Assembly: GCF_054482595.1 (NCBI RefSeq) | Contig: NZ_CM137008.1 | Length of the DNA stretch: 64,000 bases | Strand: one strand, 5' to 3' | Shown: positions 609 to 5,704 of the stretch, in pieces | Layout: each line of letters begins with the position of its first letter | How positions within the stretch are numbered: the stretch's first letter is position 1 | The notes under the pieces: generated by a model | Seen by the model: the letters and a program-made list of their open reading frames with translations, nothing else | Told to the model about the DNA's origin: nothing | Databases searched by the model: none | Made by a program: the position numbers and the translations under genes

Positions 609-2852
609 TTAGAAACGGAAGGTTGCGGTTGCAACGACCTGACGTTCTGCGCCCCAGAAGCAGCCATAAGTGTTAAAGCAGCTGGCGACGTATTCACGAT
701 CGAACAGGTTGTTAACATGCAGCGCCACGTTGGAGCCCGCCATGCCGACTCGCGCCAGATCATAACGCACTAACGCATCCACGACCGTATAACTTCCCAC
801 TTTAAAGGAGTTAGCCGGATCACCATAGCTGGAGCCAGTATAACGACCACCGGTGCCCAGCGTCAGACCTGAAAGCGGACCGTCAAAGAAGGTATAGTCA
901 GCCCACAGCGAAGCCATGTGTTTTGGCACCTGTGCAGGCGTATTGCCTTTATAGGTAGTATCGGTGGTGTATTCCGCATCGGTGTAAGTATAAGAACCGA
1001 CTACGTTAACACTCGCCGACAGCGCCGCTTTCGCTTCGATTTCTACGCCACGTGCGCGGATCTCGCCACCTTCAACCGAGAAGAAGGAACCCTCAGGGTC
1101 CGCCATCAGGTTGTTGGTTTTAGTGAGATTATACACGGCACCAGTAACTACAATCGGACGATCTTCCGGTACATATTTCACGCCGACTTCATACTGCTTA
1201 CCTTTAGACGGTGCGAAAATATTACCATCCTTCCCAACTTGCGAAGAAGGTTCAAACGATTCGCTATAGCTAAAGTAAGGTGTTACGCCATTATCAAACA
1301 GGTAGTTAACACCACCACGCCAGGTAAACTGTTTGTCATCACGTTTATCGGTCGTCCCGGCAACGCGGTTAAGAGATTCTTGATCTGCCCAGTCATAACG
1401 ACCGCCCAGGGTGACCAGCACTTTATCCCACTGCGCCTGATCCTGAACATAAACGCCCGTTTGTTTCTGTTTATTCAGAATGCGGTAAGGGCCGGAGTTT
1501 GCCGGATCTTTGGCATTGAAGTCGAAATCGGTATTCACCGGATTGTACAGATTGAGCAGTGGCACAGAGTCGTCGTAACCAAACCAGGCGTTGATGTCAT
1601 TACGCATACGCATAAAGTCGACACCGGTCAGCAGGGTGTGGTCGATATCGCCAGTGGCAAACTTGCTCTGCAACTGGGTATCAACAGAGAAGTTTTGCAG
1701 CTTCTCATCATCAACGACGTATTTACGTGCCAGATAATGGCCTTTATCCGCTGGCGCTAATGCCGCACACTGTTTGCTGTAAGCATTCGCCGGATCGGAG
1801 CAGACGCCGTAACCATAAACGCTGTTTTGCGAGGTTTTGTTTTCAGCAAAGCGCAGGTTCTGACGCACAGTAAAGGTGTCGTTAAATTCGTGATCGAAGC
1901 TGTAGCCCACCATCTTCTCATTACGAGAATAGGTGTTGTTCTTCGCCCCTTCGTTAAAGTCTGTCGGCAGACGCTTACCGTTCGGCAGCGGCTCAACGGT
2001 TCCCTCTTTCGGCAACCAGCCGTAATAACCGGTTTCCGGCTCGTTCTGGAAGTAAGAAAGGAAGGTGAAATTGGTTTTATCATCCGGACGCCAGGTGAAC
2101 GCCGGTGCAATAGCATAACGCTGCTCTTCTGACCCTTTCTGCTGGGCATTGGCAGAACGCGCAAGACCGGTCAGGCGATAAGAGTAAACGCCATCATCAT
2201 CCAGCGCATCGCTAAAGTCAAAACCAGTCTGGAACAGGCTGTCAGTACCGGCTTTAAACTGAACTTCTTTCAGCGGTTCGGTGGTCGGACGCTTGCTGAC
2301 CATATTCAACAGACCGCCAGGACTGCTTTTACCGTAAAGCACGGAAACCGGGCCACGCATAATTTCAGCGCGTTCCAGCATATACGGATCAATGACCGCA
2401 TCGTTATAGAAGTTGCCCTGCAACTTCAGGCCATTCAGATAGTTATTTTGGCTTTGGCCTTCTGCCGCAAAACCGCGAATGATCAGGTGGTCATAGGTGT
2501 TGGATGCGCCACGCGTACCAACAGAGACACCCGGCGTATAGCTAAGCGCTTCTTTCACCGACTTCGGCTGATGCAGCGCCATCTCTTCGGCGGTCACAAC
2601 AGAAATAGACTGTGGCACTTTTTGAATCGGCGTATCGGTTTTAGTGCCGGTAGCTGACTGTCGCGCCGCAATAGTTGCAGCAGGCCCCCATGCGCTTTCT
2701 TGCGGCGCAGGTGCAGCGGTAACGGTGATAGTGTCTTCTTTCGGTTCAACCGCTGCCTGTGCATAAACAGACATGCCGCTAACCGCTGTGGCTACTACAA
2801 CTGCGATTTTACGCAGTGAGTGTTTTGGCTGAGCAGTTTTGGAACGCGCCAT
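609..2852 (-). CDS. fhuA: TonB-dependent ferrichrome outer-membrane receptor
   Basis: 747-aa ORF with signal peptide and C-terminal beta-barrel ending in F; sequence recognised as FhuA; synteny with fhuC. Confidence 0.95.
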   Translation of the reverse strand: MARSKTAQPKHSLRKIAVVVATAVSGMSVYAQAAVEPKEDTITVTAAPAPQESAWGPAATIAARQSATGTKTDTPIQKVPQSISVVTAEEMALHQPKSVKEALSYTPGVSVGTRGASNTYDHLIIRGFAAEGQSQNNYLNGLKLQGNFYNDAVIDPYMLERAEIMRGPVSVLYGKSSPGGLLNMVSKRPTTEPLKEVQFKAGTDSLFQTGFDFSDALDDDGVYSYRLTGLARSANAQQKGSEEQRYAIAPAFTWRPDDKTNFTFLSYFQNEPETGYYGWLPKEGTVEPLPNGKRLPTDFNEGAKNNTYSRNEKMVGYSFDHEFNDTFTVRQNLRFAENKTSQNSVYGYGVCSDPANAYSKQCAALAPADKGHYLARKYVVDDEKLQNFSVDTQLQSKFATGDIDHTLLTGVDFMRMRNDINAWFGYDDSVPLLNLYNPVNTDFDFNAKDPANSGPYRILNKQKQTGVYVQDQAQWDKVLVTLGGRYDWADQESLNRVAGTTDKRDDKQFTWRGGVNYLFDNGVTPYFSYSESFEPSSQVGKDGNIFAPSKGKQYEVGVKYVPEDRPIVVTGAVYNLTKTNNLMADPEGSFFSVEGGEIRARGVEIEAKAALSASVNVVGSYTYTDAEYTTDTTYKGNTPAQVPKHMASLWADYTFFDGPLSGLTLGTGGRYTGSSYGDPANSFKVGSYTVVDALVRYDLARVGMAGSNVALHVNNLFDREYVASCFNTYGCFWGAERQVVATATFRF

Positions 2853-2874
2853 TGGTATATCTCTGATGTAAAGT

Positions 2875-2923
2875 GAATGATAACGTAAACGAGAATGATT
2901 ATTATAAAGATAAGATAATATTC
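2875..2923 (-). promoter_or_regulatory. Candidate Fur box in the fhuA promoter
   Basis: AT-rich GATAAT/ATCATT-type repeats (gaatgataacgtaaacgagaatgattattataaagataagataat) 23-70 bp upstream of the fhuA start; resembles the Fur consensus GATAATGATAATCATTATC. Coordinates approximate. Confidence 0.4.
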
Positions 2924-3071
2924 GAAACGCTGGCGGGTTCGCAAGCGGTACGCAATCTGAGCGTTCCTGAAGGGTTAATAAACAACCAGATGAAAAGAAA
3001 GGGTTAATATTTTAGATGGGATGTTATTTTACCGGATGGCAACTCGCCATCCGGTATGTCACGTTTAGACG

Positions 3072-5606
3072 TTAATTACTACCAAACATATCTTTAATCC
3101 AACCGGCTACACCGTCGCTGTCTTTCTGCTCTTGCTGAGCAGGTTGCTGTTGCGGCTGTTGCTGCGGCTGAGAAGACTGATCAAACGGATTGCCTGACGG
3201 CTGCTGCTGCATCTCACTCTGCTGGCACAGCGATTGCGGATCGCTGGTCCAGACCGGCAAGACACGCATGCCACCGCTGCAAACAAAGTTGCCGTCGTAG
3301 TCCACGCCCATATCTGCAATATCTTCTGGCGGAACAAGATTCAGCGGCGTTGGCGTCTGGTTAGCCAGATAACGCTGATAAATCGACATTGCCCCGCTGG
3401 CACCATACAGTTTGGTCGGCTGGTTGTTATCACGGCCGACCCAGGTGATGGTCACCGTGCTGCCGTCAATGCCCGCAAACCAGGTATCTACGTTATTGTT
3501 GGTAGTCCCTGTTTTCCCTGCCAGATGCAGGTTCGGGTATTTCGCCCCAAGCTGACGACCCGTACCACGTTGTACCACCTGCTGCATGGTCCATAGTGTC
3601 AGATACGCCGCCTGCGCCGGAACAGCGCGTTCCGCCTGCGGGAAGCTCTGATACAGCACTTTGCCATCTTCCGCGATTACCGAACGCAGCGCAGAAAGCG
3701 GTGCACGGTTACCACCGCTGGCGATGGTCTGGAATGCCTGCGCCACTTCGATTGGCGTTAAGTTCAACGCCCCCAGCAGCATTGCCGGAACCGGATGCAA
3801 CTGATCTTTCGGTACGCCCAGTTTGATCCAGGTATCCGTAACCGCAGGCAGCCCCAGCGCCATCCCCAGATTTACCGTCGGCACGTTCATCGAACGGGTC
3901 AACGCATCCACCAGCATCACTCTGCCGCTTTCGCTATAACGACGGTCATCATTCTGCGGTGACCAGACCTGGCCATTCGGCTGACGCAGCGCAATTGGCG
4001 CATCCGCAATCCACGTATTCAGACGATAGATTTTCGGCTGGCTTAAGGCCGTCAGATAAGTCGCTGGTTTTGCAAGGGAACCAATCGAACGACGCGCCTG
4101 CATCGCACGGTTGTAGCCCGCAAACTGCGGCTCAGAACCTCCGACCATCGCACGAACTTCACCACTAAAGCGGTCGACGACCACAATCGCGGTTTCCAGA
4201 TCGCTCAGCTTACGCTGTTTCTTAAGTGCCGGAATGCCTTCCACGGCGGCTTTTTCTGCCGCGTCCTGGGCCACCGAGTCAAAGGTAGTGAAGATCTTCA
4301 CGCCGGAGAGATCTTTTACCTTATCGCCTAATTTAGCCTGAAGCTCCTGACGCACCAGTTGCATAAAGGCTGGCTGAGGAGAGATCACCCCACCGCGCGG
4401 CTGAACACCCAGCGGACGCGCACTCAACATGTCATAGAGTTCTTGATCAATAATCTGTTGCTGTTGCAGCAGACGCAGTACCAGATTACGTCGCTCCAGC
4501 GCCAGTTTCGGGTTACGCCACGGGTTGTAGATGGACGCTCCTTTCACCATACCGACTAACAGCGCCTGCTGATCGAGGCTCAATTCTTCTACCGGGCGAC
4601 CAAAGTAATACAAGCTCGCCAGCGGGAAGCCGCGGATTTCGTTGTCGCCGCTCTGACCGAGATACACCTCGTTCATATACAGCTCAAGAATACGGTCTTT
4701 GCTGTAACGCGCGTCCATGATCAGCGCCATGTAGGCTTCATTCGCTTTACGCCAGTAAGAGCGCTCGCTGGAGAGGAACAGGTTTTTCACCAGCTGCTGC
4801 GTCAGCGTACTCGCCCCCTGCACCGTTCGACCTGCGGTCAGGTTTGCCAGCACCGCACGTCCGATGGAGTAGAGACTGATCCCATCATGCTCGTAGAAAT
4901 GACGGTCTTCTGTCGCCAGCAAAGTATCCACCAGCAAATCCGGGAAACCACTGCGCGGCACAAACAAACGCTGCTCACCGTTTGGTGAGGAGATCATGGT
5001 GATCAGACGCGGATCAAGACGGAAGAAACCGAACTGACGGTTGTTCTCCATATTGACGATGGTCGCCAGATGATCGCCATCAAAGGTCAGACGCGCACGC
5101 ACCTGCCCTTCTTTGCTGTCCGGGAAATCAAACGGACGGCGGATCATCTCAATGCTGTTAGCCTGCACAGTAAATTCGCCAGGACGGGTCATTTTCGACA
5201 CCTGACGATACTGGGTTGCCTCCAGCAGCTTCACCATTTCGTTCTTGCTGATGGTCATGTCTGGCTCAAGGTTGACCATTCGGCCATAAACTGCCGCAGG
5301 CAGTTGCCAGACCTTGCCATCAATACGGCTGCGAATTTTTTGATCGAGATAAACGCCGTAAATGGCGATCAGCACGGCAAAAACGATAGCCAGTTTTAAC
5401 AGCAGCCATAGCCAGCCGCGTTTGCCACGAGGCTTACGCCCTTTGCCTTTGCCCTTACCTTTGCGCGGCATCGGTTCTTCATCCTCATAGTCATCATAAT
5501 CGTCGTAATCATCGTCATCTTCGTAACGACGACGGCTTACCTTTTGTTTGACCGGACGCGTCGGTTTCCCTTTGCGTCCAATTGGCTCGCGGTCATTCCC
5601 GGCCAT
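3072..5606 (-). CDS. mrcB: Bifunctional penicillin-binding protein 1B (glycosyltransferase/transpeptidase)
   Basis: ORF-track 849 aa; start trimmed to [13 protein letters not shown] (844 aa); contains the STLTQQ glycosyltransferase motif and transpeptidase domain; acidic [15 protein letters not shown] then [11 protein letters not shown]-terminal segment. Confidence 0.93.
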
Positions 5607-5704
5607 GCTTTTTCTCCGCAATATTCAGGCGCAAAAGCCCGATTTTCTGTTCTTCTGTTACAAGACAGAAGAAGATATCTCTCAAAATTTGAGCTCGATC
5701 GGTC

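Follow-up and report, generated by a model that had tools for sequence, protein, structure and literature searches.

Recognition of the established Fur operator of the Escherichia coli fhuACDB promoter from raw sequence

The AT-rich hexamer repeats upstream of fhuA raise the question of whether they form a genuine operator for Fur or only resemble one as part of an AT-rich promoter. The ferrichrome receptor FhuA is also exploited for entry by phages T1, T5 and phi80, by colicin M and by albomycin. The repeats are, with very high confidence, the Fur operator of the E. coli fhuACDB promoter, which probably represses by blocking polymerase; the feature is already known and is identical to that of K-12. 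The evidence obtained here comprises the match to a Fur matrix and its rank in the window, the 6-bp phasing of the sites, the identity with K-12, the conservation across genera and the position relative to published transcription starts. The evidence that Fur binds in vitro and in vivo, and that expression depends on it, comes from the literature on the identical sequence.

The window, i.e., the whole stretch of DNA analysed, is a 64-kb segment of an E. coli chromosome. Near its beginning lies the regulated gene, an open reading frame of 747 amino acids that matches the NCBIfam FhuA equivalog with 1474 bits (cut-off 803):

609..2852, minus strand: fhuA coding sequence (ferrichrome outer-membrane transporter), identified by the NCBIfam equivalog match

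The genes mrcB (3072-5621) and hrpB precede fhuA on the same strand. With a 501-bp query spanning the junction, fhuA and mrcB were both found in 5424 of 5426 complete E. coli genomes. At 3031-3055, 17 nt past the mrcB stop codon, there is a hairpin that has a stem of 10 bp (ACCGGATGGC / GCCATCCGGT) and lacks a U-tract; it is not kept in other genera, some of which, e.g., Citrobacter, carry a hairpin followed by a T-run instead. A preliminary description of this DNA had located Fur-like repeats 23-70 bp upstream of fhuA. Read on the minus strand and counted from the A of the ATG (2852), the interval in question, 2875-2923, does extend from -23 to -71, and its sense-strand sequence is GAATATTATCTTATCTTTATAATAATCATTCTCGTTTACGTTATCATTC.

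Seven hexamers in this interval match GATAAT or ATTATC on the sense strand in at least five of six positions, including one exact ATTATC at 2914-2919. Seven is the maximum for any 49-bp interval in the 64 kb (mean 0.48) and is reached by 0.014% of them, so that the AT-rich, Fur-consensus-like repeats noted earlier are borne out and have the highest density of such hexamers in the window. Two of them lie at the upstream end:

2909..2919, minus strand: two further ATTATC-type hexamers (ATTATC at 2914-2919 and CTTATC at 2909-2914) overlapping the -10 element and the discriminator, found by hexamer scan

A scan of the window for the classical consensus GATAATGATAATCATTATC with at most three mismatches gave no match. 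The best classical 19-mer at the operator (CTTTATAATAATCATTCTC, 2891-2909) agrees with the consensus in 14 of 19 positions, a match equalled or exceeded by 10 other 19-mers of the window, mostly in coding GAT repeats. A match of this quality is not distinctive, and it is the weight matrix, rather than consensus counting, that singles the site out.

The Fur matrix was symmetrised and derived from 17 footprinted or gel-shifted K-12 sites, with fhuA excluded. The training 19-mers were retrieved by the K-12 coordinates given in Tables 3 and 4 of Chen et al. 2007 (PMC2189734), corrected for the genome-version offset, and were aligned as AATGATAATnATTATCATT. Scoring of this kind had been proposed in the preliminary description, and the fhuA-free matrix placed its top match of the whole 64 kb at 2888-2906 with 20.65 bits, the runner-up reaching 13.9 bits. 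In leave-one-out scoring, the 17 training sites gave between 5.6 and 28.8 bits (median 20.4); the fhuA site scores like a typical genuine Fur site. Positive scores near fhuA were obtained only at the centres 2891, 2897 and 2903, and the resulting three-site cluster spans 2882-2912:

2888..2906, minus strand: main Fur site, 19-bp 9-1-9 inverted repeat TATAATAATCATTCTCGTT, centre 2897 at -45 from the ATG, 20.65 bits, equivalent to K-12 167439
2894..2912, minus strand: upstream overlapping Fur site TATCTTTATAATAATCATT, 6 bp from the main site, centre 2903, 7.5 bits
2882..2900, minus strand: downstream overlapping weak Fur site AATCATTCTCGTTTACGTT, 6 bp from the main site, centre 2891, 2.3 bits

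The main site, whose right half-site is ATTCTCGTT (2888-2896), is thus an AT-rich 19-bp inverted repeat that scores with a matrix of proven sites, and its overlap with 6-bp-spaced neighbours constitutes a multi-dimer cluster in agreement with Table 4 of Chen et al. 2007. The core operator, 2882-2912, is smaller than the interval flagged originally. Elsewhere in the window, the second-best matrix match (TTTAAAAATTGTTAACAAT, 42578-42596, 13.9 bits) is situated between aceF and lpd and may belong to another regulator.

The fhuA promoter of K-12 offers the reference for comparison that had also been called for. Against K-12 MG1655 (NC_000913.3 167100-167700), the window shows 100% identity from about -160 to +70 around the fhuA ATG, i.e., throughout the promoter; the few differences all lie near the mrcB end and none within the operator. 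As the promoter is identical, the experiments performed with the K-12 fhuA promoter carry over to the window sequence. Chen et al. 2007 (PMC2189734) described a three-site, 31-bp Fur cluster at K-12 fhuA, the strongest site having 19.5 bits at 167439 (-45), with a positive gel shift. Shultzaberger et al. 2007 reported two Fur sites at fhuA, of 10.7 and 19.5 bits, and the activity of a fhuA promoter-lacZ fusion was Fur-dependent in the study of Beauchene et al. 2015. In iron-replete Fur ChIP-exo experiments, Gao et al. 2023 (PMC10164565) assigned to fhuACDB a peak at 167456-167466 in MG1655 and 167456-167468 in W3110, and deletion of fur changed fhuA expression by log2 +1.09 in MG1655 and +5.0 in W3110, with an increase in eight of nine strains. 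In window coordinates the peak occupies 2870-2880, 8 to 18 bp downstream of the main 19-mer and not on it, and the matrix site nearest to it is the 20.65-bit site. The literature search found gel shifts and ChIP-exo for Fur on fhuA and no DNase I footprint. The expectation of an iron-repressed receptor promoter under Fur is thereby supported by the matrix and by published gel-shift, ChIP-exo and delta-fur data on the identical K-12 sequence; by virtue of this identity, Fur would be expected to operate in the window strain as well. Gao et al. 2023 (PMC10164565) listed two extra Fur ChIP-exo peaks at K-12 167218-167254 and 167641-167672, which correspond to 3082-3118 at the mrcB end and 2664-2695 inside fhuA, about 200 bp on either side of the operator. 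The matrix gives no support under these two peaks (3.7 and -17 bits), which are probably shoulders of the main peak.

Conservation was studied at orthologous loci of Salmonella, Citrobacter enshiensis, Klebsiella sp., Lelliottia, Buttiauxella and Enterobacter cloacae, retrieved by FhuA protein search. The order mrcB-fhuA-fhuC is kept in all six. The Fur box is conserved in the orthologous promoters: in each of the six 3.6-kb loci, the highest-scoring Fur matrix match is centred between -44 and -49 relative to the ATG, with 13.7 to 20.9 bits. The weak downstream site is stronger in the other genera (6.5 to 11.2 bits) than in E. coli (2.3 bits). The alignment also delimits a block that extends beyond the Fur sites:

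2875..2904, minus strand: nearly invariant block in seven enterobacterial genera, 96.7% identity versus 56.5% in the upstream intergenic region

Within this block only two positions vary, namely the non-specific central position of the Fur site, 2897, and position 2893, which is C or A, A being the Fur consensus base. Among 5421 complete E. coli genomes, about 570 have a fimbrial usher/subunit cluster inserted between mrcB and fhuA (e.g., strains 4/0 and WL297). Such strains regain homology to the window about 80 bp before the fhuA ATG, retain the core promoter and the Fur box intact and are identical to the window from -79 to -20, except at -62 and -61. Of the 120 loci collected by a contig scan for a degenerate TonB-box pattern (DTITVTA), most were unrelated, and the sole FhuA locus was that of E. 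coli itself. The scan also picked up two Psychrobacter TonB-dependent receptor genes with very strong Fur matrix matches (24.6 and 23.7 bits) at a distance of 245 bp upstream of the TonB box, so that a matrix built on E. coli sites works in a distant gammaproteobacterium too.

The location of the cluster relative to the promoter depends on the transcription start, for which two cap-based datasets are available. Cappable-seq recorded K-12 167428 as a strong start on the plus strand (score 31.4), and SMRT-Cappable-seq a start at 167427 with 506 reads, giving rise to the transcripts b0150, b0150-b0151 and b0150-b0152. These starts fall 7 to 8 nt past a TATTAT hexamer, and the promoter can be drawn as follows:

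2939..2944, minus strand: -35 element TTGCGA, found by promoter consensus scan
2915..2920, minus strand: -10 element TATTAT, separated from the -35 element by an 18-bp spacer and ending 7 nt before the mapped start, found by promoter scan, 97.6% column identity in seven genera
2908..2909, minus strand: fhuACDB transcription start, -56/-57 from the ATG, from the two published cap-based datasets

All six other genera have TTGCnA and TAT(T/C)AT with the same 18-bp spacer. The fhuA start is most likely at 2908/2909. With this start, the main Fur site occupies +3 to +21, and the cluster together with the upstream hexamers about -11 to +27, in overlap with the core promoter and start of an iron-homeostasis gene, fhuA.

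A further published layer concerns HypT (YjiE), a hypochlorite-sensing LysR-type repressor. In the Salmonella Typhimurium fhuA promoter, Jo et al. 2019 (PMC6397515) found that HypT footprints a proximal 15-mer and a distal one, AACCCTTCCTTTTCA. The window holds a counterpart of each:

2874..2888, minus strand: TTACGTTATCATTCA, no mismatch relative to the proximal DNase I footprint of HypT in Salmonella Typhimurium (Jo et al. 2019, PMC6397515; sequence check)
2991..3005, minus strand: AACCCTTTCTTTTCA, one mismatch relative to the distal Salmonella HypT footprint (Jo et al. 2019, PMC6397515; sequence check)

The two pseudopalindromic matches lie about 100 bp apart, with the same spacing as in Salmonella. 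A direct repeat of 10 bp, ATTAACCCTT, has its first copy at 2999-3008, where the distal match sits, and its second 29 bp downstream, at 2970-2979.

Several explanations compete for these observations. An AT-rich promoter with -10-like hexamers might mimic a Fur box by chance and bind no Fur at all. The undistinguished 14/19 agreement with the classical consensus speaks for such a coincidence, as do the dinucleotide shuffles, which attained 20.65 bits in 5 of 300 whole-window trials (1 of 5000 when the intergenic region was shuffled). In addition, the first six bases of the main site are TATAAT, and the match might in part be due to resemblance to a promoter. Against this stand the coincidence of the top matrix score with exactly the promoter of an iron-uptake gene, the 6-bp phasing, the restriction of cross-genus variation to positions that the Fur consensus tolerates, and, from the literature, a gel shift, ChIP-exo binding and derepression in delta-fur strains; chance resemblance is highly improbable. 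The same TATAAT underlies a different geometry for what would still be the same Fur operator. Jo et al. 2019 (PMC6397515) numbered the promoter from the start given in the compilation of Huerta & Collado-Vides 2003. Judged from the coordinates of their footprints, this start falls at -42 (window 2894), with TATAAT (2901-2906) as the -10 element; the Fur site would then extend from -12 to +7 and cover the -10 hexamer. This hexamer is a perfect -10 consensus, yet no recognisable -35 element is present within 16 to 18 bp upstream of it, and it is replaced by CATAAT in four other genera and by GCTAAT in Buttiauxella, whereas TTGCnA-18-TATTAT is kept in all. Moreover, K-12 167442 appears in neither Cappable-seq nor SMRT-Cappable-seq, both of which give 167427/8. 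The literature search found no primer-extension evidence for the fhuA start, the one in Jo 2019 coming from the compilation, and the -42 geometry is considered unlikely. Either geometry puts Fur inside the polymerase footprint, and the -42 geometry is a repressing position as well.

A third explanation is compatible with Fur and makes the operator composite. The segment 2874-2888 would be mainly the proximal site of HypT, looping with 2991-3005. The identical proximal 15-mer and the one-mismatch distal one at equal spacing to Salmonella favour this proposal; the invariant block continues 7 bp beyond the weakest Fur 19-mer, to 2875, and the Fur matrix is weak in this part (2.3 bits). HypT binding, however, is known from Salmonella and not from E. 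coli, the segment can also be read as phased ATTATC-like hexamers (ATTCTC, GTTTAC, GTTATC and ATTCAC), and the Fur ChIP-exo peak covers it (window 2870-2880), so that Fur may extend there too. On balance, the composite operator is a serious possibility that falls somewhat short of even chances. Judged from these sequence matches, HypT may use the 3' third of the interval alongside, or in place of, Fur, and the hexamers at its 3' end, where 2874-2888 overlaps the HypT footprint, need not all belong to Fur. The invariant 13 bp past the main Fur 19-mer (TACGTTATCATTC, 2875-2887) may reflect a second constraint, imposed either by an operator that HypT shares with Fur or by a role of the leader RNA; the search for a leader RNA element gave no Rfam match and no unusual folding (z = -0.12). 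The chances appear evenly divided for the joint proposal that the -42 start is not the main one, which would leave the main Fur site in the initially transcribed region, and that 2875-2887 is under a second constraint.

Under the preferred reading, i.e., a Fur operator that represses fhuACDB, Fe2+-Fur dimers would bind under iron sufficiency to 19-bp sites that overlap at 6-bp intervals (2882-2912, with the core at 2888-2906), and the ATTATC-like hexamers would continue the cluster upstream across the -10 element. Because the cluster lies within the RNA polymerase footprint, bound Fur is expected to bar polymerase binding or open-complex formation, probably by steric occlusion. When iron is scarce, Fur would leave the DNA and fhuACDB would be transcribed.

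Through this site, E. coli adjusts the expression of its ferrichrome receptor to the availability of iron. Its main value here is that of a positive control, in which an established operator was recognised from raw sequence and in which matrix, conservation and literature agree. The only new point is at the level of curation, as the cap-based starts and the cross-genus conservation point to a promoter 14 bp further upstream than is usually drawn; this shift alters the position of the Fur site relative to +1 and not its function.

The closest known system is the K-12 fhuA Fur cluster itself (Chen et al. 2007; Shultzaberger et al. 2007), which has the same sequence, the same position at -45 and likewise three sites in 31 bp; the published score is 19.5 bits, compared with 20.65 here. 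The Fur operators of fepA-fes, cirA, fecA, entC, fhuF, exbB and tonB similarly consist of an AT-rich 9-1-9 inverted repeat in overlapping copies at 6-bp spacing, located on the core promoter of an iron-uptake gene. Compared with them, the left half-site of fhuA is degenerate (TATAATAAT versus AATGATAAT), and its main site is located just downstream of the mapped start instead of across the -35 and -10 elements. In the Salmonella Typhimurium fhuA promoter with its HypT looping sites (Jo et al. 2019), the Fur box also lies between the two 15-mers. That study differs from the present analysis in its -42 start, which disagrees with the cap-based E. coli start at -56/-57, and the HypT binding described there is that of the Salmonella protein.
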